Source of the DNA: Octopus vulgaris
Lineage: Eukaryota
Length of the DNA: 64,000 nt
Assembly (NCBI GenBank): GCA_951406725.2
Contig: OX597816.1
Span: 149,048,001-149,112,000 of the forward strand
Direction of reading: 5' to 3'
The notes below the pieces were generated by a model. It saw nothing but the letters and a program-made list of their open reading frames with translations, searched no databases and was not told the DNA's origin. Below are positions 1,061 through 64,000 of the stretch, piece by piece; position 1 is the stretch's first letter; the number at the start of each line of letters is the position of its first letter. The position numbers and the translations under genes were made by a program.

Positions 1061-1689
1061 ATATATGTATGTATATATATATGTATATGTATATATGTAT
1101 ATATATCAATAATACAGTAATTGTTTCTTATCAGGAACAAAATGTTTAATAGGACTGCTATAGAAGTGCTCAATTAAATGAGACAAATATATTAAACTGT
1201 GGTTGCAGAACAAACAAATACAAGGTCATCCACGTAACATTTCATATCTCGAACATTTAATCACATAATGCTTTTTCTTTCACATAGAATATACATGTAT
1301 AACATCACGGAAGATGAAACACAACTCATCAGTACAAGCATATAAGAAAATACAAGAAAAATGCGTGAATACAGTTCATCTCGGTTAAAAGTTAACGCTT
1401 AATATTTTAGCAATTAAGAAATATATATTTTTTAAAAAACATTACAACACCTAGAATAATAAAAATATAAGAAATATATAGATATATAAAAATACATATA
1501 TAAGTATAGGAAGCATATAAATAAGTAATATATAATATATAAGGTCAGATAAAAGTTCATTGTTTAGAAAAATTTTTTCCGATTCAAAATTACTTTTCAG
1601 ATAAGGGAAACCTATAGTTAAAAGCCAGTGTCCAAGCAAAAATGAAGAAAACATATTTACATTCCCTATGGCCATAGGGAATGTAAATA

Positions 1690-3169
1690 CGGTGGAGGTG
1701 ACTACAGCAGTTGTTTCGGGTCATAAATCTGTATGAGTAGAAGTCCATGCAGGATATTGGCTTGTTGAGATGTTCATTAAGATTTTTGAGGATGTTGCTG
1801 TAGTAGACCAATGTGGTAGTCATCCTCATCGTTAATAAACAGAAGTGGGTATTGGAGTGTATCGTATGATCTGTGTGTTTCACTAATTCGTTGGAGGGTG
1901 GTGTCACGTCGCCTGAGGACAATGTCTCTGGGATTGTGCTGTTCACCGTGAAGGAATACAGCTATTTCATTGCATGTGGGTGCATTGTAATGGCCTGCAT
2001 GTTCCCTAGATGGTCTTTTCTGGGCATCAATGATAACATTAAAATTTGATGAATCTTCAGTTTCCAAGGTATACTTGAAGATGTGTACATAGCTGTTTTT
2101 CTGGTGCAAAAGGTCTTGCAGTTGCATTATCAAGTGAAAGTTAGTACCTGTGGAAATGGAATTTCGTTGGGTGGCTTGCTCATGTAAATTACCTACAAAG
2201 TACAGTTGAAGGAATTGAGGATCTTGATTTTCAGCAGGTTTGAGTGATCCTATCCTATGGTAAACCTGTCCCTGAACTTTGAAAGTTGGCATAAACCCGC
2301 CTTCTTGAACAACATTAGCGCCGAAAGATGTCATTTGGAATGCACAATTGTACTTCCGGATGTTATTCAGGAAATGCTTCGACTCTGTAGTTGTGCCAGC
2401 GTAGAGTGACTTTAAGAGCTGTGGTGGATCCATTAGCGCAACACATTGCAGGAGTTTCTCTTGACCACTTCTTAGCATTGCAGAAAGAGCAAGTGATGGA
2501 CATATTGCCAATGTTCATATCTGGGTGGCAATCATAATGAAGGTTAGGGTTGTATTGGAAAGCCTTTAATAACCATCGTTAGCTGCATGGCGTTGAAAAT
2601 CCTCGTCTATGAGCTCTTTGTTGAGTTGAAGTCTGCAGCATAGTACATCTCTGTTGTAAGGTGTAGGAAGCTTGCGCAGCAGCCATGTTGGCAGCATTCC
2701 TGAGCAGACGTGTAGTGCGTTCGTTTTTATTCTCTGCAGCTTGTGCAGCAGCAGTTGAGGAAGCATCAGCAGTTCGTCGAACTTTACGCTGGAGTTCTGT
2801 TTCTGCAGCTTGTGCAGCAGCGGTTGAGGCAGCATCAGCAGTTCGTCGAACTTTACACTGGAGTTCATTTTCTGCAGCTCGCGCAGCAGCAGTTCGTCGA
2901 ACTTTACGCTGGAGTTCATTTTCTGCAGCTAGCACAGCAGCAGTTCATCGAACTTTACGCTGGAGTTCATTTTCTGCAGCTTGCACAGCAGCAGTTCGTC
3001 GAAGTTTACACTGGTGATCTTTTTGAAGTGCTCTTGAATTGGCAGTACGTCGAGCATTTTGTGATCGTCTAATGTAAGTTTTGGCTGACGATTCATTGGC
3101 CCTCCTTGCTGATGTTCTTGCAGCTTTCGCAGTTTTGCGTCCAATTGAAGAAGTCTTCCTTCGGGGCAT
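1690..3169 (-). pseudogene. Helitron RepHel, N-terminal part (basic leader, 17/23-aa repeats, zinc-finger region, pre-Rep region); frameshifted and 3'-truncated
   Basis: Motifs IRKYNCAFQMTSFGA, TFKVQGQVYHRIGSL, PQFLQLYF, YNAPTCNEIA and ETHRSYDTLQYPLLF are typical of Helitron RepHel; starts MPRRKTSSIGRKT after a ttttag acceptor-like site; ORF is broken into several frames. Confidence 0.88.
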
Positions 3170-16457: not shown

Positions 16458-17837
16458 TCAAGTAAGACCATCTGCTTTATATAAACCTGTATTTTTGACA
16501 TTGGTAACTTGTGTTGATGATAATGGTAATCTGTCCCCTTCTGCTGTAAAAAGTCCTACAGGATAGACACTTTCACTGCTACCATAAGTCACATTGTTGT
16601 CAATTAATGGAGTTGTTATTGTTCGATTTAGTGGTTTAGAAGGGTCTTCTTTTATGAGTCTAGATTGAGAACACAGTTTTCCTTCACTATATGACACAGG
16701 AGATAAGTCAGAAACTGGAGAACTTTCAAATACATTAGATTTTAATTTGGGTGATGTTCCATATATCTTATTTATTGTTGCTTTGCTATTTGTGGTATCT
16801 GAAAATGGTAAGCTAAAATCTGTAGTGGATATAGCTATAGAATTCAAAGGAGTGTTTAGCGCCTGAGAACTATCAGAAACTGAACTAGATGTGCAAGCTC
16901 TTTTATTCATTTGACCATATTTATCATCAGGTCCTACAGTCTCGATTTTTACAGTGGGAAGGATAACTGAACCAAATGGAGAGTTGCCACTGTTAGTGTC
17001 CAGAGATGCAGCCTCAAACTCTCGCTTAACGGTTCTGACTGTACCTTCTTTAAGCTGTGCTAATTCATTCTGGGAAATCTGCTTAATATCCTCTGTAGGA
17101 ACAGTTGAAACAGAAGATGGCATCTGCCTGGTATCATCAAACGCAGTGACTGTTGAAGTAAGTAGCTGACATGCTCCACTTGTTGTTGCTTTGCTATTTG
17201 TGGTATCTGAAAATGGTAAGCTAAAATCTGTAGTGGATACAGTTATAGAATTCAAATGAGTGTTTAGTGCCTGAGAACTATCTGAAACTGAACTAGATGT
17301 GCAAGCTCTTTTATTCATTTGACCATATTTGTCATCATCAGGTCCTACAGGCTCGATTTTTACAGTGGGAAGAATAACAGAACCAAATGGAGAGTTGCCA
17401 CCGTTAGTGTCCAGAGATGCAGCCTCAAACTCTTGCTTAATGGTTCTGACTGTACCTTCTTTAAGCTGTGCTAATTCATTCTGAGAAATCTCCTGCTTAA
17501 TATCCTCAGTAGGAACAGCTGAAACATCAGATGGCATCTGCCTGGTATCATCAAACGCAGCGACTGTCAAAGCAAGTTGCTGATGTGCTCCACTTTGAAG
17601 ATGAGCATCACACATATTTTGTAAGTCTTTCATGTCTAATTGTTTTGCAATGACTTTTAGCTGTTGTAAAATATTAAGATCAAGATCTAATAGTCCAGTA
17701 TACATGTATTCAGTAAAAGCCATTAAAGTTTCTGTGCTTACTTCAGGAAATTTCACTTCATAAAACTGAGAAGAGATGCATGTACTAATTACTGAGAACA
17801 GTTTTGGAGACACAGCAGACAAGACTATTTTATGGAC
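16458..17837 (-). CDS. BTB/POZ-domain protein paralog 1, last coding exon (C-terminal part of BTB, duplicated S/T-rich linker, conserved tail)
   Basis: tttcag|GTC acceptor; VHKIVLSAVS...FPEVSTETLMAFTEYMYTGLLDL...AKQLDMKDLQNMC is a BTB signature; 1380 nt open to TGA. Confidence 0.9.
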   Translation of the reverse strand, partial: VHKIVLSAVSPKLFSVISTCISSQFYEVKFPEVSTETLMAFTEYMYTGLLDLDLNILQQLKVIAKQLDMKDLQNMCDAHLQSGAHQQLALTVAAFDDTRQMPSDVSAVPTEDIKQEISQNELAQLKEGTVRTIKQEFEAASLDTNGGNSPFGSVILPTVKIEPVGPDDDKYGQMNKRACTSSSVSDSSQALNTHLNSITVSTTDFSLPFSDTTNSKATTSGACQLLTSTVTAFDDTRQMPSSVSTVPTEDIKQISQNELAQLKEGTVRTVKREFEAASLDTNSGNSPFGSVILPTVKIETVGPDDKYGQMNKRACTSSSVSDSSQALNTPLNSIAISTTDFSLPFSDTTNSKATINKIYGTSPKLKSNVFESSPVSDLSPVSYSEGKLCSQSRLIKEDPSKPLNRTITTPLIDNNVTYGSSESVYPVGLFTAEGDRLPLSSTQVTNVKNTGLYKADGLT

Positions 17838-21021: not shown

Positions 21022-24000
21022 TTATTGCAGCGCTTCTTTGTAGACGACGTTTCTTGTTTTTGCGGATTGCCGCATATGAAGAGGTTTCGCGGATCTCCAA
21101 TACGTGAGCAACCAACGTAAAGTTGACCATGAGTAAAAACATCTTGGGTCAGGTTTAGTCCAACAACTTAGAGTGATTGGCCCTGAGCTTTATTTATACT
21201 CATGCCAAAACAGACTTTTATTGGAAATTGTTTGCATGTAAACTGGAATGGACTGTCAGACGGACTTAGACTGATTGGAGTTAGCAGTTTTGTCATGCCT
21301 GCAGATGGCCCGCTTAGAATGACTGTTGTGAGAATGCGAGTGCCAATATCTTTGATGATAAGTCTCGTCCCGTTGCACAGTTCTGGTGGGTCGATGTTTC
21401 GAAGCAGCATAACTGGAGTGCCAACTTTGAGTCGGAGGTCATGAGGTGGAAGTCCAGAAATTTGTAACGTGTTGAGGAATTCGGTGGGATAGTTGACAGC
21501 ATCATCAGCGTTGTTTGTAGTGTTGATGGACTTGAATGAGTGTTCGTTCCCAGGAATATGGTTGAGGAGATTTTGATTAATGGCGTCGACATTTGCATTG
21601 TGTGGGGCTAAAATGGCTCTACCTTGCAGCCAGTTGGAATCATGAAATTGAGCTTCAAGATCAGGAAAAACTACCAAAATTAAATCATCAATACTTTCAA
21701 CAAAATTTCCGAAGAGAAGACTAATATGGTCTGCATCGATTGCAGTTGCAGTTCCGTTTCCAACATCGAGTAATTGTCTGCAGAATACTTCAGTATCTGC
21801 GTCCCATTGCAAATGTACTCTCATGTTGGTGGTGAGGTGAAGTTTTTCAACATGACGCCAAAGGTAAGACGATGTGATGCATGCTTTCACTTCATCTGCT
21901 CGTGTGCCCCCAGTGATGACAGGAAGGGTTTGCCGGAAATCTCCAGCCAAAATAACTGTTGCTCCACCCATAAGTCTTGGATTTCGACGCAAGTCCTTGA
22001 GAGCTCAATCCAAAGCCTCAAAAGCCGACTTATTGCTCATTGTTGCCTCATCCCAAATAATTAGACAGCAATCGGAAAGGAGTTTACCTCTTGGCGTGCC
22101 TCAATCTATTTCGCAAGATGGATTCTCTTTCTTTGCAATAACCAAGGGAAATTTGAAGGCTGAATGTGCTGTGCGACCGCTATGCAACAAAGTTGCAGCA
22201 ATTCTGCTTGATGCAACTGCCAAAGCAATTCTCCTGTCTTTTCGCAGATTTGCGAGGAGAAGGTTGATGGCAAAAGTTTTACCTGTGCCATCAGGTGCAT
22301 CCAAAAAGAAAAGCATGCCTTCATTTGAAACGGCACTGGTGAAAATTCAGTTGTATGCAAGTTGCTGTTCAGGCAAAAGTTTTGGTTCATCTCGAGTCAC
22401 CATTTCAGTCAACTCTTCAATGTTATAGTCCAATTCAGAAATGTATTCTGAATCTAAAACGCCATCTCTGTAGACAGGGCTTGGAATACCGAAATGACAA
22501 ACACCATCAAATCCAGCAGCTCTGAGACGTCTGTCGATATCAAGTAGAGCCTCATAGTAGATCTCATTGTTGTATTCGCGTGCATGCAGTCTTCGCAAAA
22601 TATCTTCTGACATGCTGTCTTTGTGTGCCTCCCACAGTTGGAGGGGTTCGCTGACATCGCAAAATCGTAACATACTGCAAAACAATCGCCGCCTTTGTTT
22701 TGGCAGTTTACAATCAGCAGCCTCAACGCCAGGTGCAGATGATTGTCGTCTTCAAGAAGTCCGTGCCTCACACACACCTCCCTGTAAGTGGGACAAATTG
22801 TGCTGTCAAACATTCTGAGGTCAGCAAATGACTTGGGTCCTCTAACTTGATGCAGTAGGGTTCTCAAGAAGAAGCACTCTTGTGCACGTGGATGAACAGT
22901 GAAAAGACGTCCGATTGCATCACTTCTCTTTACACCGGGCCAATTATCGACATCTCCATTTTTCCTTCGACTATGTGATTTCTTTGACCATGTATAGTAA
23001 ACTGGTACATCGTCATAGAGAAGTGTTGCAGCAAATGCATCTCAGGAGCAAAGTTTGAAGAATGCCATAAATTTTGTCTCCAGCAGCTGTTGAGCGACAA
23101 TTTGGGCATTCCGCTCCGTGAAATAGGTGCGCTGCCCATTCTCCAAATGAACATCAATGAACTCGTAAATGTCAAAACCGAAAATCCTCCAAGCCGCCAC
23201 ATTGGAAGAAATGTATCACCCCATGACATATTGCTGGATTTCGTCATTTTGATTCATGCCACCGCTGATGCCAATCACCACCCTTGTTGATGTATTTGGA
23301 TATGTATTTGATGCTTCTGACAGAGGTGCAGCTCTCAACGTTGATGTGTGCTTTGAAGATTTTTGCGAGCAGGGGGCTGTAGGGCACAACCCAGCAGTTG
23401 TCAACGAAGTAAGTGACACCGTCTCTCTTTACCTGAACTGCAATGCCACCGAAATCAGGAGCGCGCCACCGATAAATGGGATAGCTGTGGGTTCTGGTGC
23501 AAGCTGTGCTCACGAAGTCTTTGGGATAATGCTTGCTGCATTTGTTATTCTCCATGCATGCTTTTCTGGGGTTGAGAGGAACACAAGGTCTGTGCAAAAG
23601 ATTGGTCAAAACAATGTTATGAAGCTCTGGATCAACGGTGGGATCTGGAAGCTCAGCACTGATAACTATCAATGTCTGCAGGTCTAATTTTTTCTTTGCA
23701 CCAAATAAGAATATGTGCATACGGAAGGCCCCGCTTCCGCCATTCCACAATGTACATCCAGGCATTAAGAGGACTGTAGATTTTCTCCTTCTTCAGCAAG
23801 GACATCAGGAGATTAAGCTTGAGTTTGAAGACTAATTTCATCTCAGGTCTTGAGTTCAAAAACTCTGCAGCAGTTTTTAGCTCACGGACGTAAGGGTGGC
23901 TGTAGTGAAGCATTGTTTGAAGCTCTGCAATGATATTGCGACTTAAAGGAGGGTTTTTGCTGCATCTATGAGAAAGTTCTTGCTCATGTCCACCCATGAA

Positions 24001-24780
24001 GAAAACCTGCATAAATCGTGGCTCCTCTCCTGATTGTGGGAGAAGGCTCCCAATTTTGTGGTAACATTGGCCATGAATTTGGAAAGTAAAAAGCTTTTCT
24101 TTGGGCCTTGTAACAGTGGTTTGAGAAGTGCTGGCAACCTCAGTGTTGTCAGTGTTTGTCCTTGTTATTCAGCTGTCACTCACACCAAAAGACATCATCG
24201 AAAAACATGAGTTGTATCTCTATAAACTCTTTCGAAACAGCTTTCCGTGGTCAGAGTCACTGGTGAGGTCCTGGATTATTTTGGGAGGAGCAGCCAGTGC
24301 CTCAAGATGAACTTTGCCCCCGGAACAGCAGAGACCTGGAGTCTCCCCTCTCCACTTTTTCGCCCCGCAGTATTTGCAGACTTGATCCATCTGTCCTATA
24401 GAAACGTCGGCTCGCGTAGTCATAAGTAGGATCATAGTTGAAACCTACCATCAACCAAAAATTTTGTTCTGGACGATGTCGTTGTTGTCTTCAACGTTGC
24501 TGGTCCTGCAAACGAATCTTCCTGGCCTCCTAATTCTCAGTCATACGGGTGAATCGATCCCTTTCGCGCTGGGCAGAAAGACGTGATTCTCTGGCAGCAG
24601 AAGTCTCGCTTCTTCGTGATTGCCTGGTGGATTAGGAGAAAGGGCAACGCTCACATGCCTCATTACTCTCTTCGATGCATGAAAGGGTCGAACTATCATT
24701 TTGTTCAGCAACAGGAAATTCCACTGATTGCGGCGTTTCCTCAGAAGGAAGACCCTGTAGAGACGGATAGCATCATTCAA
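21022..24780 (-). pseudogene. Helitron 2 RepHel (zinc finger, Rep HUH endonuclease, PIF1-like SF1 helicase); many frameshifts and stops
   Basis: CKYCGAKKWRGETPGLCCSGGKV; EWRKRGLPYAHILIW (degenerate HUH motif); SIKYISKYINKG; FFLDAPDGTGKT (Walker A); LAGDFRQTLPV; FPIKVCFGMSINKAQGQSL; FTHGQLYVGCSR. Confidence 0.93.
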
Positions 24781-25311
24781 AATGGTATAGCTAATGATTA
24801 TATGGTAAAGCCAATGTAATAGTAGTAGATTGTATTTTTGGATAGTCAAGTCTGGTATACTTCTTAAATAAAAAAAAAAAAAACCCAGAAAAATCAAGTC
24901 ATAATTCGAACAAATTGTGCAATTAATTTTTTTTGATAAAGAATAAAATGTGTGACTTATAAGTAATAATTATTTTTAGATCGACAGGAATACATTCACT
25001 GCCATGGCTTTAATGTTATGTATTAAAAAGAATAATTAAACGAAAATAAAGCAATGGCAAAATTAATGTGTTAAGTTTTAGCAATCACCTAGTATGTGTT
25101 CAATACCAAGATAAGCTGCAAATATTATGGATATTTGGTAGGCAGTCCAACAAACAGTTATTTTACTAAACAAATTGTCCAAGAAAACGTCGTAAATATT
25201 GACACAAACTCGATTTTTCATGAATGCTTAACAGATTTGAATAATTAAGTTCTGATGTAAACATTGCAGCCGCTGTTTTTATGGCAATAATAGATTAGAT
25301 GGTAGAAATAG

Positions 25312-34183: not shown

Positions 34184-34278
34184 TTATCAGCATCAAACAG
34201 TTGATCATCAGTCTGCACCTGCTCTGTATATTGTTGCTTCATTGATTCTTCCGAATAACATTGATTTGACAATTCTGC
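34184..34278 (-). CDS. BTB paralog 2, 95-nt upstream exon (AELSNQCYSEESMKQQYTEQVQTDDQLFDADK)
   Basis: ctttcag|GCA acceptor, AA|GTATGT donor and an 89-nt intron; joins in frame (AA+A CAC ATG) to the next exon. Confidence 0.7.
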
Positions 34279-39660: not shown

Positions 39661-40065
39661 AAACATTCTTTGCTGATTTCTAGCGTTCTCATTCCTGGTC
39701 ATCTGTTTCCTTCTCATCTTCCTCTTTTGGTCTTTAGCCAGCAAACCCTGCCCTTCGTCAGTAAGTCGTGCCAGCTTTTTTCTGGCGAATCTTAGCCTAT
39801 TCTTGACCAGTAGTTCCTTTCTCTCTTCATCAGTCATCGCCTTCCTCCTTTTCGCCATTCTTAGCCTTTCCTTGTCTCGTACCTCCTGTCTTTTTTCAAC
39901 AGACATCGCCTGTCTTATTCTGGCAATTCTTTGCCTTTCCTTGGCTAATCGCTCTGTCCTTTCTTCAGGAGACATCGCTTGCTTTTTCTTGGCCCTTCGT
40001 TGTCTATCTTTCGTTCTCTCCTGCTCTCTCTCCTCGGCAGACATCTCATGTCTTTTTCTGCTCAT
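39661..40065 (-). CDS. Exon encoding four basic 23-aa (STPR-like) repeats; candidate first coding exon of BTB paralog 2 (589-aa model)
   Basis: MSAEEREQERTKDRQRRAKKKQA / MSPEERTERLAKERQRIARIRQA / MSVEKRQEVRDKERLRMAKRRKA / MTDEERKELLVKNRLRFARKKLA; ends TTT|GTAAGT in phase 0, compatible with the phase-0 acceptor at 34278. The splice link is inferred. Confidence 0.55.
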
Positions 40066-54249: not shown

Positions 54250-55020
54250 CCCAGAAAATAACTATATACCATGCCAACAAAAGCCAGGTACAGGGGCTTA
54301 TCTTTGGTTAGGTATTTCTCCTGCAGTTGTCGAACCAGGAATATGGTATTAGTGGTGCTTCCACCTGGCACAAAACTGAACTACCTCTCATCTAAGCAGA
54401 CTCTGTCCCTGATGAGATGGGCTATGACCCACCTCCGTGACCTTCGTTACCTGATCCAGCAGTTTGATACCTCTGTAGTTATTTCTATCTAGAGCATCAC
54501 CTTTACCCTTGTAGCAGTTGACCATGGTGCTGCTACGCCAGTCGTTGGGTATGATTCCATCATGAACTACCTGGTTTACAATGTGGGTGACTAGGCCATA
54601 GCCTACAGCAGCAGATGTTTTAAGCATCTCAGCAGTGATTTCTGATGGGCTGGGGGCTTTTCCTGGCTTCATACCCTTAATTGCTTTATCTACTAGGGAG
54701 CTGTCTATACGGATAGCTGGTCCTTCTACTGGGTGAACATTTGGCAGGCTCTCCTCCTCCCATTCATTCTCCACATTCAGCAGTCTTTCATAATCGCTTC
54801 TCCAAGCCTCTTTCTTTTCAGAATCATTAAAAGCAAGTGCACCATCATCCATTCGGACACATTTCTCTCCTGTGACATCACAATTTTCTCTCACACACTG
54901 TCTTGCAATCTGAAATGGCTCAGTTCTTTGGTCCTCATGTTCCTGGACACTGGCAAACTTCTTTTCTGCTTCGCTCTTGGCTATGTATACCGGCCACCCA
55001 GTCTCCCTTTTGGCTGGGTG
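54250..55020 (-). mobile_element. Internal RTE-clade LINE ORF fragment (linker plus start of RT)
   Basis: KGMKPGKAPSPSEITAEMLK...IPNDWRSS...YKGKGDALDRNNYRGIKLLDQ. Confidence 0.85.
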
Positions 55021-55551
55021 GCAGGTATACATGCATATATATATATATATATATACACACACTTTTATGTGGTATGTAAGAGCAGCCCTGGTCAAATTGT
55101 TCAACTCATGCAAGCCTGGGCAATGGACATTAAATGATGATGTGCATGTGTATATATGTATATATATATACATAGACACTTTTTTTTATGGGTCAACAAG
55201 GCTACTAATGATTTCATAGAAAGAGGGATAGCTTTTGCCTCCATTTTGGATGAGAATACACGAATTTACACAATACTGTATAGAATTTTGGGATAAATTT
55301 ACAGATCATGGTTGATAACTTATAAAGAAATCTTGTTTTCTTATAAACAGTTTGTGCAAAGGCTTTATGGATTTAGGTATTCTATAGAAAAATCCAACAA
55401 TAAAGGAATCTAGTTGTTAGCTATTGAATTTGTAAAGAGATTCTTACAAAACAAAAAAAGGTTTTTTTTTCAGAGAAATCAAACAAAACAATTATTTTGG
55501 AAATTTTTAATATACAAATATAATTATTTATCAAAATATAAATACTCAGTC

Positions 55552-55598
<47 letters not shown>

Positions 55599-55622
55599 AT
55601 CGAAAGATTAATTTTTATGGTG

Positions 55623-56579
55623 TCAAGTAAGGTCATTTGCTTTATATAAACTTATACTTTTGACATTGGTAACTTGTGTTGATGATAATGGTAAACTGTC
55701 CCCTCCTGCTGTAAAAAGTCCTACAGGATAGACACCTTCATTGCTACCAGAAGTCACATTGCTGTCAATTGACTGAGTTGTTATAGTTTGATTTAGTGGT
55801 TTTGAAGGGTCTTCTCTTATGGGACTGGACTGAGAACACATCTGTTCTAAAATACATGATGCAAGGGATAAGTTAGAAACTAGAGAACTTTCAAATACAT
55901 TAGATTTTAATTTAGCTGTTATTCCATGTATTATATCTGTTGCTGCTTCATTTGAAACTGTAGATGTATCAAAATGTTTATTCAGGTGACCGTATTCGTT
56001 ATCTTCAGGCCCTACAGGTTCGATTTTCAAACTAGGGGCCATGCAAAAATTTTCAGAAAAGTTATTTTTTGTACTACTACTCAGTGATCCAATCTCAGAT
56101 TCTTGTCTGAAGACATTAACTTTATCCTTCTTAGCCAGTGGTAATTCAGTCTCAAAAGGCTCTTGTTTAATATCAAATGCTTGTGTAGTGATGGATGGAG
56201 TAGACTGAGATGTAACTGAAATGATAGATGATGATGATGGTAGAGGTGGTTGAACTGATAGTTCGGTCTGTGTGTTGTAATGGTCACCTAAGACAGTAGA
56301 TGTTGAAATATGTGGTTGAGATTCTTCATATGGAAGACAACTATCACACAGTTGTTCAAATTCTTTCATGTCCAAACGTTTTGCAATGATTTTCAACTGA
56401 TGTAAAATATCTGGATCAAGATCTAATAATCCATTGTACATGTATTCAGCAAAGGCATTTAAAGCTTGTGTACTTACTTCCTCTGGAAAGTTAATTTCAA
56501 GAAAATTGCGAGAGGGGATATTTGTACTAAATACTGACAACAGTTTTGGACACACAGCAGACAGGACAACTTTATGTAC
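55623..56579 (-). CDS. BTB/POZ-domain protein paralog 3, last coding exon
   Basis: tttcag|GTA CAT acceptor; VHKVVLSAVCPKL...FAEYMYNGLLDL...AKRLDMKEFEQLC; 957 nt open to TGA. Confidence 0.9.
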   Translation of the reverse strand, partial: VHKVVLSAVCPKLLSVFSTNIPSRNFLEINFPEEVSTQALNAFAEYMYNGLLDLDPDILHQLKIIAKRLDMKEFEQLCDSCLPYEESQPHISTSTVLGDHYNTQTELSVQPPLPSSSSIISVTSQSTPSITTQAFDIKQEPFETELPLAKKDKVNVFRQESEIGSLSSSTKNNFSENFCMAPSLKIEPVGPEDNEYGHLNKHFDTSTVSNEAATDIIHGITAKLKSNVFESSLVSNLSLASCILEQMCSQSSPIREDPSKPLNQTITTQSIDSNVTSGSNEGVYPVGLFTAGGDSLPLSSTQVTNVKSISLYKANDLT

Positions 56580-56826
56580 CTGAAACAAAGTAAATGATAA
56601 AACATGCTAATAACTTAACTTAAATCAAGGAGTAAGTCTTTATTTCTTGTTTTTCTCCCCCAAAATATTCAATTCCAAACAGGAAAGCAATTGTCTCTAA
56701 TGAAAGATTAGTAAAATTCAAAAGTTATTTTGATCTGTGTATCTTTATTAGCAATTTGAAAAAAATTATATCAATATGATGTACAGGTAACTTTAAAAAT
56801 CTTAAGAAACTGTTTGATAAATATTA

Positions 56827-57133
56827 TGTGGTTTTAGTAGTGTTATGGGCTGTGATGGAGCTATGTGGTGTTGGTGGAAGGGATTGCAGATGAGGTGGAC
56901 GGAAGTAAGGCTTGCAGGGGCCGGCGGAAGAGTCACAGGGGTGTGCGTGGGAAGGAACCACGTGTGGTCAGCAAGCACATGTGGCCAGTTTGAGCAAAGA
57001 TGGCAGAGAGACAAGACATGTTTAATTCATGAGAGTGACCGCTGATTTCACCGAGGTCAACAGGTAAGACCTTTTGTATTTCTTTCTCTCGTTTGCTTCT
57101 TTTTCTGTTGTCCTTTTCCTTCATCACACTACA
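56827..57133 (+). repeat. 5' LTR (307 bp)
   Basis: TGTGG...CACACTACA; matches the 3' LTR with substitutions and a 17-bp length difference. Confidence 0.92.
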
Positions 57134-57169
57134 AGCTATTTCGGTCCATAACAAAAAAAAAAAAAATGA

Positions 57170-57890
57170 ATGATGAGTGTTGTCCGTATTTTGAATGATA
57201 TGATCAAACCATTTTGCAGTGACACAGATGTAGTCGCTTGGTTGAAGAAGATGAAGTTGGTGGCGAAGCTCCACGGTATAAGTGACTTATCGAGTTTTAT
57301 ACCGCTGTACTTGGATGGTTCGGCGTTGGCGCTGTACCTAGAAATGGAAGAGAGGGACCGACTTAGCGTGGAGAAAATAGAAATCCGTTTGATGGAGGCC
57401 TTTGCAGAGGGAATGTTCGAGGCATACGCTCGCCTGGGGAAAACAAAATGGACTGGGGAACAGGTTGACGTATTTGCAAACGAACTCAGGAGATTGGCTA
57501 AACTGGCGGGATATGAGGGAGAATCGCTGGACCGAACGGTTAAGTTGGTGTTTGTGACTGGCTTTCCTGACCACATGTCGGTCGAGTTGCAGAAGCTGCC
57601 GAATATTCACTCGATGGTGATGGCAGACATTGTATCTCGGGCTCGCGTGCTAGTTTCGTGCTGCAGAACAACGTTGGTAGCAGCGACTTCAACAATTAAA
57701 AGTGGCCATGGAAAGAGCAGCAGAGAGGGGTCAAAGAAAGAACATGTGCGATCATTCAAAGGACAGAGTTTCCGGTGTCAGGGCCCGCACATGGTATGAG
57801 ACTGCGAGTCACCCAAGCCTGAGGTCATTTGCTACTGGTGTCGAGAAACGGGACATATAGCCAGCGAATGTTTGCGGGGAAATGGTCTGA
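57170..57890 (+). pseudogene. gag (capsid-like region plus two degenerate zinc knuckles, in-frame stop at 57797-57799)
   Basis: IKPF...DVVAWLKK...IPLYLDGSALALY; SFRCQGPHMV*DC and CYWCRETGHIASEC. Confidence 0.8.
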
Positions 57891-57924
57891 GGGAGACTAC
57901 TGCGCTGGTAGTTGTCCCTTTGGA

Positions 57925-60700
57925 TCAATAGAGGTGCGTTTATCGTCATTACCTGTAGTCGACATTCTGGTGGAGTGGAAGATGTCGCAAGCCCTTGCGA
58001 ACACGGGCTGTACAACGACCCTGATGACTCCAGAAGTGGTAGAGACGTGGAGTGCAGAAAGCAGTGTAAGTGCAGTCAACGGAAGAGAAGTACACTGTGA
58101 AGGCATTACAGATGCGCAGATTGTGGTGCAGGGAATAAGGCTGACGCTACGAGCAATTGTAGTTGGCCACTTGGTGGACGAGATTGACGTGGTGATGGGG
58201 ATGGATGCAATCACCCGTTTGGGAGGTGTCACTGTTAACAAGGCCAGTGTAACGTTCAGGTTTGCGGGGAACCCATGTATGGATGAGACTGTGCACTGAT
58301 GAGAACCATGAAGAAAAGTATGCTGCACACGCCATTGAAGACCAGGATTTTCGGGCTGTCTTCGATGGCCAGAGGTGGACAGTGGAGTGGCACTGGAAGG
58401 GAGAGCCCCCGACATTAAAAAATAAAGTGGGCTGCTATCAGCATACCCTAAAAGGAGATGCCAGAAGTGAGTTTGAGGGGGATGTGGAGCAGTGGATTAA
58501 GGAGGGCATATTGATCCCTTGGGATGAAGAAGAGAGCAGAGTCCTGCCACTGATGGCGGTGGTACAGACCACAAAGCATAAGGTCAGGCCAGTGCTTGAC
58601 TTCCGAGAGCTGAACAACCACGTATCATGTCATACAGGCGGCGAGGCCACAGATGTCTGCGGAGACACCTTGCGAGTGTGGAGACAGATGACAGGGGCCT
58701 CCACGATCGTCGATTTGAAGTCGGCATACTTGCAGGTACATGTGGCTGAGAAACTGTGGAAGTATCAGCTTGTCAGGTATAAGGGCCGGACATACTGTCT
58801 GATCAGGTTGGGGTTCGAGCTGAATTCAGCGCCAAAAATCATGGCAACAATTCTCAAGGCCATCCTGGGAAAGGTGGACAGAGTTAAAAAGGCCACCAAT
58901 TCGTACGTTAATGACATTCTGGTGGATGAAACTGTAATGCCAGCAGCGGAGGTCATAGGCCACTTGAAGAATATGGGACTGATCGCCAAGCTACCAGAGG
59001 CAATAGAGGAAGGTGCTGCACTGAGCCTCAAGCTATGGAGAGATAAGGCCGGCACATTGGTGTTCCAGCAAGGGAACGAGATCCTCGAACTGAGTGCCAG
59101 CATGAGTAGACAGGAACTGTTCTTGGTGTGTGGGAAGCTGGTTGGACACTACCCGATTGCAGGATGGCTCCGGACAACATGTAGCTTCATCAAGAGACGA
59201 GCCGAAGGAGTGAAGTGGAACGATAGAGTGGGGGAGAAGACGACCGACATGATACAGGAAGTCTTGGTCAGAGTGAGAGCAGAGGATCCAGTGAGGGGCA
59301 GTTGGTATGTTCCCAAATCAAAGAGTGGGATTGTATGGTGTGATGCCAGTAGCATCGCAATAGGGGTTGTCTTGGAAGTGGGAGGCGTCATGGTGGAAGA
59401 TGCAGCCTGGCTCAGGAAGACGGATGACTGCAATTATACCAATGTGGCGGAGTTGGATGCTGTGTTGAAGGGAGTGAACCTAGCCTTGAAGTGGGGGCTG
59501 CACACCATAGAAATCAGGACTGATTTGGCCACTGTACTTGGTTGGGTGACAGCAGTCATCACCATTGAGCGGAGGGTGCGAACCAAAGGGGCCACAGAGA
59601 TGCTGGTAAAGCGTCAATTGGGAATATTGCGTAAACTAACCACTGAGTTCAATCTGTAGCTGATCTTTGTGCCTTCCGAGAACAAGGCAGACGTCCTGAC
59701 CAGGGTAAAGCGAGTCTGGTTGCAGGTGCCAGAGGATGCAGAGCAGGCTGTGGCCGCAGTATGCCATCTGAGTGACTTGGAGTTGAGGAGATTGCATACC
59801 ATGCATCACATGGGGGTGGACAGGATGTTGTTCCTAGCTAGGAAAGTTGACTCTGATGTAACAAGATGGAGCGTGGTTAGCAGCTGTGACAGGTGGCAGT
59901 CCATCGACTCTGCTCCGGGCGAACATGAGGCGGGAAGTATTCCAGTGGATCACGACTGGCGGTGGACATAACACACTACTGGCAGGGGACATACCTCTCA
60001 ATGGTTGACTGCGGACCGGGGCGGTTGGCCATATGGAGGAGATGAAGACAGGGACCGCAGAGGAAATTGTGAAAGTATTAAATGAGATATTCCTGGAACG
60101 AGGCCCCGTGGATGAACTGCTTCTGCATTTCGCTTGGAGGTGCTGAAAGAAATGCTTGATGGGTGGCAGGTGAACCCCTTCATCAGGATGGCATACCGGC
60201 TGAGTGGAAATGGGGTGGTGGAAAGGCATCATCGTACCATCAAGACCATGGCAGAGAGGGGCCACATTTCACCAATCGAGGCTGTATTTTGGTACAATAT
60301 GTCGCTCAAGTCAGGACAGGCTGAGGAGTTGGTGCCACACGGAAATATTCAGGTACGAGTGGAGGCATCCATGTACTGCATCAATGTGACCCGGAACAGA
60401 GGAAGAGCATGCCTTTGTGCAGGTCGGAGAAGAAGTTTGGGTAAAACCCCCAAACGTATGGTGTACATCACGATGGGGAAAGGGAATAACCTCCATCAAT
60501 TCGAAGAACAACGTCTCTGTCAATGGTGTGCCACGCTACATTTTGGATGTACTGAAGATTGTCCATGCCTCAGTAGGCAAGAAGATGAAGCAAGCAGCAG
60601 CATGCCAGGAACTCAGGCTAGTCCCGGGGTCGCACGGTGACCACAGAGGGAGCGGCACCCTCCTCCCTGGTTGGCTGATTATGAAACCAGTTAAGGTGTG
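57925..60700 (+). pseudogene. pol (protease, RT, RNase H, integrase), inactivated
   Basis: ALANTGC (degenerate DTG), RPVLDFRELN, IVDLKSAYLQ, SYVNDIL (YxDD changed to YVND), VWCDASS, AELDAV, SGNGVVERHHRTIK; stops and frameshifts. Confidence 0.88.
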
Positions 60701-60745
60701 AGTTTGGGAGCGAGGAGTGAGTGGGAAAGCCAGTTGTAGGGGGCA

Positions 60746-61035
60746 TGTGGTGTTAGTAGTGTTATGGGCTGTGATGGAGCTATGTGGTGTTGGTGGAGGG
60801 GATTGCAAATGAGGTGGACAGAGGTAAGGCTTGCAGGGGCCGGCAGAAGAGTCACAGGGGCATGCATGGGCAGGAAGCATGTGTGGCCAGTTTGAGCAAA
60901 GACAGCAGAGAGACAAGACGTGTTTAATTCGTGAGAGTGACTGCTGATTTCGCCAAGGTCAACAGGTAAGGCCTTTTGTATTTTTTTCTCCTGTTTGCTT
61001 CTTTTTCTGTTGCCCTTATCCTCCATCACACTACA
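60746..61035 (+). repeat. 3' LTR (290 bp)
   Basis: TGTGG...CACACTACA followed by TSD TATTA. Confidence 0.92.
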
Positions 61036-61482: not shown

Positions 61483-61932
61483 CATCACAGCAGATGAACC
61501 GTTACTAATACTAGCATCACACAGTTTTCTATTCCTCCACAACGAAGCAATGTTAGACATCACATGGCGCTGATAATTAGCAATTACAAATATCTGTTTC
61601 CGTGGAGTTTTTCCCACAGAACAGCGGGCTTGTGTTTGTTCTGCGGTTTCAGCTGCCCTTGCTTTGGCTGTGGCAGCGGCATCTAGAGAATGGCGGGCCT
61701 GTTTTTGTTTTGCAGTTTCGGCTGCTCTTGCATTGGCCATGGCAGCGGCATTTCGTGAACGGCGGGCCTGTGTTTGTTCTGCGGTTTCAGCTGCCCTTGC
61801 GTTGGCCAAGGCAGCGGCATTCAGAGCTAATCGAGTAGCTCTGTCTTGGAGTGCCTCTTTGGCCCTTTTGGCCCTATGAGCCTCTGCACCAGCCGTCCTT
61901 CTTCCAATGCGGACCCTCTTCTTTGGGGGCAT
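61483..61932 (-). CDS. BTB paralog 3, first coding exon: Helitron-like N-terminus with 23-aa repeats fused to the BTB N-terminal half (468-aa model)
   Basis: AAAATG start; MPPKKRVRIGRRTAG...AETAEQTQAR repeats...RHVMSNIASLWRNRKLCDASISNGSSAVM|GTAAGT; phase-0 join to 56579. Confidence 0.82.
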
Positions 61933-63512
61933 TTTGGCAATTTATTGAAATAAGTGAACTTTAAATGGATTTAATTTTTGTGGACTAAGTGAGATAGTTT
62001 GGGGCAACCGATAAGCACACGATTTTAAGTAATGGCAAAGCAATAATCAAAACGATAATGGCAGAAACGGTACCCAAATGGAAAACAAAGGGCTATTTAA
62101 AAACAGTAAAAAAAATCGTAGACAGGTTTCAGGTTTTCAAGCACAAAAACTGTTTACTGTGCTTGTAGGTTGGTGAAAAAAACGTTGGCTGCTCAAGAGA
62201 AGCAGTAATCAAAAAGTGATATCAAACACGAAAACGTCTATTTTTTACTCAAAAAATGATGCTGAACTACAAATTCTCTAATTAATACTTTGGTTAATCA
62301 AATCTTGAACTGATATCGAGCACAAAAAGACCAAAAAAATTGGTGTCAAACTGCAGAAGATGCTTTAAGTAAGTGTTAATTTATGAGTTGATAGGCAAAA
62401 ATATAGCCGGGCAACCCAAGTAAAAGTGATAGGTAAAATGGAATTTTATGAACAAAACTTGTGGTCAGTAACGGAAATCGAGTCACGAAGCGTAATTGTG
62501 AAAAGCGTTTGAGTTTGGTCGCCAAAGCATGCATCCTCATGCTTAATTAACGCATCGAATCTTAATTTATAATTATCTAGTACGCGCAAATCCAAGGCCG
62601 CGCATCCAACGTCAGATGTTTACGTATGTCCCTCAGCAGCATTGGCCAGTACACGCACGCATGCATATACGCACACGTTCAAGGTCAAACGCAGTGCCAT
62701 GTTCACGCACAGGATGACTAAGTGCCTACACGGGAAAAGGCTTTTTGTGGTGTTTGATGCACGGGCTAATTAATTAGTGGAAAGTGGATTCAAGTTAGAA
62801 AAACATAGGGCATTTGTGAAGTGAGAAAACCCAATCTATTTGCGGTAGCAAACAAAGAGCTTATTATGTGGAAGTTAAGGCTAAAAGAAAGCGGTTGTAA
62901 TTCAATTTGAATGGGGAAGCCCGTAAGGTATTTTTATGGGCAAACTCTAATCAAATTAAGATTTCACGCACCATAAGTAATAATCTGAGTACCCTTGTCA
63001 CCTGCTATGTAGATAGCGAACGATTCGACCTCAGGCTGAATGCGAACTCAACAAACAATGGTTATGTGTATTTTCAAAATCATGCTGTGGTACGGTCAAA
63101 ATTCGAGTTTTTTCGCATTCTTCTTCCTCCTTTTTTTGTCCGACTATGACATGTGCACAGTTCCGCTAACTGAAAGCTTCATATTATGTGCTTGTTGTTC
63201 GTTTCCGGTGTTTCAATAAAAAGTTCTTACTTAATCAAGGTAGTGCAGAAACACTGTATGACTCGTGAGTTCTAGCCTTGAATTGTCTTAGGTACCGGTG
63301 TGCTTACCTATAAAATGGGGTAAGAACAAGACTCAAGCTTTTTACAGATAAAGATTTCTTCGTTTTGTGCTAAATCCCTTTCTTTGTTTTCGGAAATTAT
63401 GTTCGCCTTTCCTGTTTGCAAACGCGCACGCGCATGCAACTGATAAGGGTAAAATTATCTCCGTCCAATCAAAAAACAGCTAGCAGTCTATTCGGCGTAT
63501 CTAGCTGTACGC

Positions 63513-63687
63513 CACTGACCATTCAGAGACGAAGAGGCCGACCAAGAATCCGCTGGCTTGACACCATCAAGAGTGATACCGGAATAGACATAGCCAATCT
63601 GAAAGAAGCGGCCCAGGAAAGAACTGACTGGAGGACACTGATCCAACGAGTAACCGAGAGTCGACTTCGACTGAGCGGATAGATAGA
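63513..63687 (+). mobile_element. Short 5'-truncated RTE LINE with (GATA)n tail and 11-bp TSD TAGCTGTACGC
   Basis: RRRGRPRIRWLDTIK...ERTDWRTLI; TSD at 63502-63512 and 63688-63698. Confidence 0.85.
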
Positions 63688-63825
63688 TAGCTGTACGCAC
63701 GCACCGCGTACAAATTTCTGTTTTAGCGATTTTGAACGGATATGCCCATAACTTATGGGCATAAGGAATCGGTTTATCGATTTTTTTTAATGGCTTTCTG
63801 GGGTGACGGGGGAAATGAAAAGATC

Positions 63826-64000
63826 GGATCTTTTCGGTTTGACCAGCAGTTTTTAAAAATACTTTCCACGTAAACTTTTAAACTTCGTATACTGGTAGAA
63901 TGTGTTTATAAAACATCTTTTTCTCTTGGCCTTATTGAGAAAATTCTATAGCTTGTAAGATATTTGTTGTTTTTTTTCTTCAATTTCTGCTATTTCAACC
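63826..64000. mobile_element. GGATC-family MITE, cut by the window end
   Basis: Nearly identical to the left arm of 25312-25705. Confidence 0.85.

Follow-up and report, generated by a model that had tools for sequence, protein, structure and literature searches.

KRABINER and other host-transposase fusions join the DNA-binding part of a transposon to a host regulatory domain, and the young cases coexist with their parent gene (bioRxiv 10.1101/2020.05.07.082677, in the portion available). Both features recur in an exon of Octopus vulgaris that begins as a Helitron and ends as a BTB gene. The exon lies in a stretch of 64,000 nucleotides (the window, G000:C3:149048001-149112000), and extended window coordinates continue the numbering of the window beyond both ends. 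In the available text of the preprint the transposon part is always a separate exon captured by splicing, whereas the octopus joint lies inside one exon. Purifying selection was reported there in all 81 cases tested, but none was detected on the part captured in octopus (pN/pS 1.04, with low power). The octopus donor is a Helitron, and the words Helitron, BTB and STPR do not appear in that text. What is new against the known fusions is this donor, the joint inside an exon, and a locus with repeated gains of such domains. The transposon-host fusion factors known so far are for the most part old and vertebrate, derive from cut-and-paste elements and arose by splicing; in the octopus fusion the donor family, the parent gene and the exact junction are all still readable, among older genes of the same design. 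One locus makes testable both the passage of a captured DNA-binding domain from neutral to selected and the question of whether host STPR domains derive from Helitrons.

The repeats at the start of the octopus exon share with the STPR domain of FMBP-1 and ZNF821 a 23-aa period, a Glu1/Thr2/Arg9 scaffold and at least three repeats, and three repeats suffice for binding in FMBP-1 (PMC4856987, available part). Unlike those of FMBP-1, they have neither Tyr16 nor Arg20 in any of the three full repeats, have Arg6 in one of the three, and score under the Pfam cut-off. STPRs have been reported almost only in HLE1 Helitrons, which fits the STPR likeness of the octopus donor family (PMC11417382, available part). 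That paper treats them as a domain of the element itself, with no transfer to a host gene, whereas the octopus case is a host fusion.

On the host side, octopus THAP-BTB and CENPB-BTB proteins belong to the same BTB family, and their co-occurrence with transposon-type DNA-binding domains has been noted (PMC10027918). The available text of that paper regards BTB itself as transposon-derived, does not contain 'Helitron' or 'STPR', and describes no cluster or first-exon layout. BTB-integrase and F-box-HTH captures are the subject of a further paper, the available text of which does not mention STPR, octopus or mollusc (PMC12062965). No report of a Helitron-BTB or STPR-BTB fusion, or of this locus layout, was found in the open-access literature, supplements aside (those of PMC10027918 and PMC12062965, for example, could list such proteins).

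The chimeric exon and its Helitron donor

The chimeric exon (61932-61483, minus strand) translates into 150 codons without a stop and ends in ATG|GTAAGT, a GT donor conserved in 13 of 13 such exons of the cluster. Codons 1-104 form the Helitron-derived leader (61621-61932, minus strand), which consists of the RepHel start codon, a basic stretch, PPKKRVR, which we take to be NLS-like, and three full and one partial 23-aa repeat of the STPR type. The host part (61483-61619, minus strand) supplies the last 46 codons of BTB exon 1 and is 97% identical to G000:C3:149119598-149119817, an exon 10 kb upstream and just beyond the window. The two meet at 61618-61619 (minus strand) in a 2-bp microhomology, CT, common to the Helitron family and the parent BTB exon; the junction was placed by comparing the window with the Helitron copies L002, L004 and L008 and with the parent exon in L021. 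Helitron start and host BTB are joined in frame inside one exon. The first-pass annotation of this DNA had proposed a stop-free exon with this donor, a junction at about 61620 and an in-frame fusion with an intact BTB domain, and the comparison agrees with it on each point. An internal acceptor downstream of the repeats, the alternative tested, is rejected on reading the sequence: the only AG nearby lies in what is exon in the parent, and no pyrimidine tract accompanies it.

The three full repeats (aa 26-94) are followed by 9-10 residues of a fourth, so that the repeat region covers residues 26-103. The leader matches itself at lag 23 with an identity of 0.51, whereas lags 10-35 average 0.17, in line with the exact period that had been proposed. 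The HMM search suggested for the leader gave a mixed answer, since Pfam STPRs (PF21107) matches aa 30-103 with an E value of 2.3e-4, at 21.9 bits that lie under the curated cut-off of 27 bits; the family member L006 scores 34.2 bits against the same model. FMBP-1 STPR is the sole PDB sequence match of the leader at E<=10 (E 0.81). Glu1, Thr2 and Arg9 are all present in repeats 2 and 3 and in the partial fourth, and repeat 1 keeps Glu1 and Arg9 with Ala at position 2. The DNA-contact residues of FMBP-1 (Arg6, Leu10, Met13, Ser14, Tyr16, Ala17, Arg20, Leu21) are represented only by Arg6 and Leu10, both in repeat 1. The predicted structure is helical over aa 14-87 (pLDDT 78-95). The proposal of STPR-type repeats stands. 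Judged from sequence, the leader repeats are of the STPR type, most of the FMBP-1 DNA contacts are not kept, and DNA binding is a prediction.

The leader belongs to a non-autonomous Helitron copy at 61618-63825 (minus strand), which has an internal deletion of about 0.9 kb at 63412. Window positions 63412-61618 are 85-87% identical to L002, L004 and L008, and 63825-63688 and 63510-63412 match the 5' part of the same three copies, with the 0.9-kb deletion. Relatives begin at TC and finish in a hairpin and CTAG-type end. The window copy is without its first ~100 bp, which hold the TC terminus, and without its last 35-47 bp, which hold the hairpin and the CTAG-type end (CTRR), so both ends that its relatives possess are lost; the junction sits just ahead of the family's terminal hairpin. 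A genome DNA search with the Helitron part gave 30 matches from 22 candidates. The more distant copies L006, L007 and L011 have the same repeats followed by a RepHel frame, matched by eye to P0007, which carries Helitron_like_N and PIF1; tblastn found more than 300 aa of RepHel in 12 of 14 distant loci, hand-picked among the 150 matches listed. By these alignments codons 1-104 are part of the Helitron copy, and the copy itself is a relic and not a mobile element.

The Helitron origin of the leader had been proposed, and both the identity to genomic copies and the RepHel continuation in relatives bear it out. The proposal had rested on an alignment with another Helitron of the window (Helitron 1, at 3169), and this element proved a distant relative only, with 31-39% aa identity and no DNA match; it is rejected as donor, and the donor family lies elsewhere in the genome. 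A complete Helitron carrying a captured gene is likewise rejected, since the duplicate is not followed by a 3' end of the family and the 5' terminus is missing.

Several other elements surround the copy. A short repeated element with GGATCTTTTC/GAAAAGATCC inverted ends runs from window 63826-64000 on to 64230, adjoins the Helitron and replaces its 5' terminus. Broken Helitrons also lie elsewhere in the cluster (window 21075-24800 and 1689-3169 and L033 near 3188, all three on the minus strand, and extended -14616 to -17323), some of them directly upstream of BTB genes on the same strand; no strand bias of the Helitron relics is evident in the cluster. CpG retention, considered as a possible mark of a promoter, is 38/50 in the window copy, 40/51 in copy C12a, and 27 and 11 of 54 in others. 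At G000:C30:18776585-18784492 (L060-L080) an array of about 8 kb consists of 69-bp units coding STPR-like repeats, with open stretches of up to 1235 aa.

The BTB duplicate and its transcripts

The upstream gene that matches the host part is paralog 4, the parent. It is whole and has its own 5' exons at 74456, 72235 and 71941 (extended coordinates). The duplicate corresponds only to parent 71817-69109 (extended) and has none of these 5' exons; it begins within exon 1 at the junction and continues through the intron and exon 2 into the flank as far as 54924. Its own BTB exon 2 (55623-56579, minus strand) is an open stretch of 318 codons with a canonical acceptor, and a deposited 468-aa model labelled Octopus vulgaris (P0002, CAI9720170.1) splices the chimeric exon to it at 56579. 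In the duplicated 3' flank (54924-55622, minus strand) homology to the parent stops inside a LINE fragment. The intron contains an LTR retrotransposon (56826-61035, plus strand, antisense to the gene) with a TAATA target duplication, an LTR pair 86% identical and an RT/RNase-H-like frame on the plus strand; the parent lacks it and has the empty site. Between the LTRs there are 22 transitions and 4 transversions over 291 bp, a divergence that exceeds that of the surrounding duplicated intron and is likely due to CpG decay. The parent (L021, extended 69706-70593) has lost 19 codons in frame since the duplication, and the fused copy retains the older form.

The BTB of the predicted 468-aa product matches Pfam at 42.8 bits (cut-off 20.5) and is modeled with a pLDDT of 83-98 over aa 121-230. 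The predicted domain aligns with the 124-aa BTB of BCL6 over 118 columns at an rmsd of 2.2, and it also matches the BTB structures of Miz-1 and LRF, so that the product is predicted to have a complete BTB fold. The C-terminal half of the model has low confidence, as expected of a disordered tail. BTB dimers are textbook pairs, and the hybrid product would act like its STPR-BTB siblings, with the helical repeats in the DNA major groove and the BTB serving dimerization and partner binding.

The same exon begins an O. sinensis protein, P0023 (XP_036357304.1, isoform X3 of LOC115209901), in which 3 of its 150 residues differ from the window, all in the leader; therefore the fusion predates the split of the two species. 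The junction is likely to be transcribed, because this RefSeq isoform exists, a single gene model from a sister species, and because the NCBI pipeline has been described as retaining alternative variants only if they are wholly supported by one long alignment or by the RNA-seq of one sample (PMC5737279, available part, on another species and an earlier release). The isoform splices to window 34278, skips its own exon 2 and ends in paralog 2; the acceptor belongs to an internal exon of that paralog (AELSNQ..., 34186-34278, minus strand). The first-pass annotation had predicted a splice from 61483 to 56579, and the only transcript-based model takes this other acceptor. Either the 56579 splice is not used in O. 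sinensis, or reads were lost because they mapped equally well to a pair of near-identical exons. Each of the two products is in frame and has a whole BTB.

O. sinensis isoforms X1, X2 and X5 (paralog 4) also splice to 34278 and end in paralog 2, and among O. sinensis proteins of 174-557 residues, the lengths covered, none contained exon 2 of either paralog 3 or paralog 4. The splices from window 61483 and from 71681 (extended) to 34278 are either cross-paralog splicing or a mapping artifact. A Logan-derived protein with the junction was not found, and a search of short proteins for junction-spanning fragments gave one match from 3342 candidates; it is an unspliced frame of the parent type and lacks the leader. 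No O. bimaculoides protein with the chimeric exon was seen among the matches listed or the members of the 8 clusters listed, a weak test, the O. sinensis isoform itself having been hidden as a cluster member.

Order of events and constraint

The duplicates differ by 12 non-coding transversions in 1140 sites (0.0105), and the window Helitron differs from its three closest copies by 33/1424, 45/1419 and 34/1111 (0.023-0.032; Fisher p 0.015, 0.0002 and 0.0009, respectively, against the duplicates). Because its copies are more transversion-diverged than the duplicates, the Helitron looks older than the BTB duplication; the LTR element, with 4 transversions in 291 sites between its LTRs, looks about as old as the duplication. 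Gene conversion between the duplicates, which have long identical tracts, could make them look too young. The duplicates differ from each other at 14 of 341 residues, and each differs from the O. bimaculoides ortholog at 36-43 of about 350; as they are far closer to each other than to that ortholog, the event is far younger than that split. A Helitron insertion that replaced the N-terminus, as first suggested, becomes the less likely route, given a host part that is a 5'-truncated duplicate and a Helitron that is apparently older.

The account that we favor, and hold to be probable rather than secure, is that a decayed Helitron start with 3.5 STPR-type repeats was joined in frame at a 2-base microhomology to a 5'-truncated BTB duplicate. 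The resulting gene, likely transcribed, would encode a nuclear BTB protein whose repeat arm is young and under weak constraint. Insertion of the Helitron about 6 kb downstream of paralog 4, the parent, would have come first. A subsequent break close to the 3' end of the Helitron would have been repaired on the parent's BTB exon 1, with exon 1, the intron, exon 2 and the 3' flank copied in the process, and the LTR element would have inserted into the new intron afterwards. A candidate promoter of the hybrid is the 5' region of the Helitron itself. Against this order, no second Helitron copy or 3' end was found downstream of the duplicate, which plain tandem duplication would leave; therefore the break-repair route also requires either that the template switched back or that a deletion followed.

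That missing second Helitron is accounted for if duplication of the whole gene came first, the Helitron then entered upstream of the resulting copy, and a single deletion took both the Helitron 3' end and the 5' exons of the copy. The position of the junction just before the terminal hairpin of the family is also in keeping with this sequence of events, or with the less likely 3' transduction, in which a Helitron without a terminator carried the BTB exons. Duplication first requires a Helitron younger than the duplication, but the Helitron copies are 2-3 times more diverged, and between 63.8 and 69.1 kb there is no trace of the parent's 5' exons. We regard this route as a real possibility that is nonetheless improbable; transduction would require a donor in which the Helitron lay within the parent exon, and that exon is intact.

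For selection, the leader was compared with 9 copies (L002-L004, L006-L008 and L010-L012; L009 has no leader, and other loci are repeats of these), with colinear limits set by eye. Changes private to the window copy are 15 nonsynonymous and 5 synonymous, giving the pN/pS of 1.04 on 20 changes, and the other copies pooled have 87 and 24 (Fisher p 0.77). The intact frame had been given weight in the first-pass annotation by contrast with the broken transposon frames of the window, which are a poor control, as 3 of the 9 closest copies are open over the colinear part, as is 1 of the 4 copies spanning all 103 codons, and open frames of 1687-1744 aa occur in Helitrons elsewhere in the genome. With 9 disruptions in 809 codons of the 9 copies, an unbroken leader has a chance probability of 0.20-0.32, so the open frame is rejected as proof of function; by its pN/pS the leader evolves like the dead copies. 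The long frames belong to L126-L128, near-identical Helitrons with RepHel and STPR-type N-termini, which are a recently active family.

Pairwise dN/dS of the duplicates is 0.36 overall and 0.16 in the BTB core, much of which falls on the parent's branch. With changes polarized by hand, 8 nonsynonymous and 5 synonymous changes fall on the BTB branch of the fused copy (ratio ~0.47, p 0.15 against neutrality), and 5 and 6 on the parent's branch (p 0.02); amino-acid changes number 8 and 4. An open BTB body has a P of 0.15, or 0.11 when combined with the branch dN/dS test. The whole 468-codon frame would be open with P ~0.03 if neutral, a value uncorrected for the choice of the exon because it was open, and this hints at more constraint than the favored account assumes. 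The fusion is real and young, its origin shown, its transcription likely, and its function neither demonstrated nor excluded. It is best read as a proto-gene whose BTB body may be under some constraint and whose repeat arm shows none yet.

A stronger reading is that the protein is already a domesticated transcription factor, in which the arm from the Helitron directs the BTB to new DNA targets, Helitron copies perhaps among them, and selection keeps the fusion. It would explain why the fusion is kept without a break in two species, why the whole frame is open, and why Glu1, Thr2 and Arg9 are intact in repeats 2-4 (Glu1 and Arg9 in repeat 1) when Arg9 is gone, by eye, in several dead Helitron copies. 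Six older STPR-type exons of the cluster show that the design can be retained, and three of them are 81-89% identical in O. bimaculoides. The leader, however, is no different from dead copies in pN/pS, and the Tyr16 and Arg20 contacts of FMBP-1 are missing (PMC4856987, available part). It also differs from O. sinensis at 3 of 104 residues, against 10 of 1236 in ten other exons of the cluster (p 0.07), and one of the three is Lys for Glu1 of repeat 3. Domestication already achieved is, on this evidence, doubtful.

Still less likely is a dead partial duplicate, open by chance and seen in O. sinensis through low-level read-through from a Helitron promoter: the chance values for leader and BTB body, the branch test, the excess of amino-acid changes on the fused branch, a 4.2-kb LTR element in the intron and the missing Logan-derived protein all suit it, but both splice sites and 468 codons are intact, the pairwise dN/dS is low (largely through the parent's branch), and gene models exist in two species.

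The BTB cluster

The surrounding 424 kb (G000:C3:148928001-149352000; extended -120000 to 304000) hold 12 BTB paralogs in which exon 2 is open. The best period is 23 in six older first exons (74456, 40065, -2040, -30920, -49448 and -61099), and all six beat 200 of 200 shuffles against a Helitron N-terminus profile; the exon at 80936, a seventh, also beats them but does not have the 23 period. Among the older first exons scanned, only -61099 passes the Pfam STPR cut-off. The shuffle and period results show that the older exons are of the STPR type and do not establish a Helitron origin. One of them, the first exon of paralog 2 (39662-40065, minus strand, 23-aa period), has 88% aa identity in O. 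bimaculoides and is absent from the first-pass annotation. The parent gene, with its first exon at 74456, itself carries 23-aa STPR-type repeats. The architecture of the chimera is therefore not new, STPR-BTB being an old design in the cluster, parent included; the fusion re-creates it with fresh material, at a locus that repeatedly gains transposon-type DNA-binding domains.

Other first exons of the cluster encode several THAP domains at 130028-263382, CENP-B HTH domains at 99650 and 302349, and FLYWCH at 112713 (extended). Many of 41 proteins chosen from the 150 matches listed pair BTB with THAP, CENP-B, FLYWCH, CG-1, DUF3504, DDE or STPR. In abalone, LOC124116851 (P0096, P0190-P0203) has at least 14 isoforms that begin with THAP, FLYWCH, C2H2 or MADF domains and have a body of 638-744 residues in common, and it shares a short HFVGG..GPT..HPDP exon with the octopus gene. 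In Drosophila, lola and mod(mdg4) attach many alternative DNA-binding exons to one BTB body, with the BTB first and the variable exons last. In the mollusc family, by contrast, the BTB body follows the variable domains, and in octopus the locus has also undergone tandem duplication. The isoforms in abalone and the exon shared with octopus suggest an old mollusc locus resembling a reversed lola or mod(mdg4).

A wider conjecture, which we think unlikely as a whole, is that this mollusc locus is a standing trap for transposon DNA-binding domains, with an STPR arm that targets its source Helitrons as the newest catch, the six older STPR exons as earlier ones, and Helitron N-termini as the source of host STPR transcription factors. 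The most upstream gene of the cluster appears to use many alternative first exons across at least 175 kb. Exon 2 of paralog 1 (window 16461-17837, minus strand) has 459 codons, against about 324 in its closest paralogs, and contains an in-frame internal duplication.
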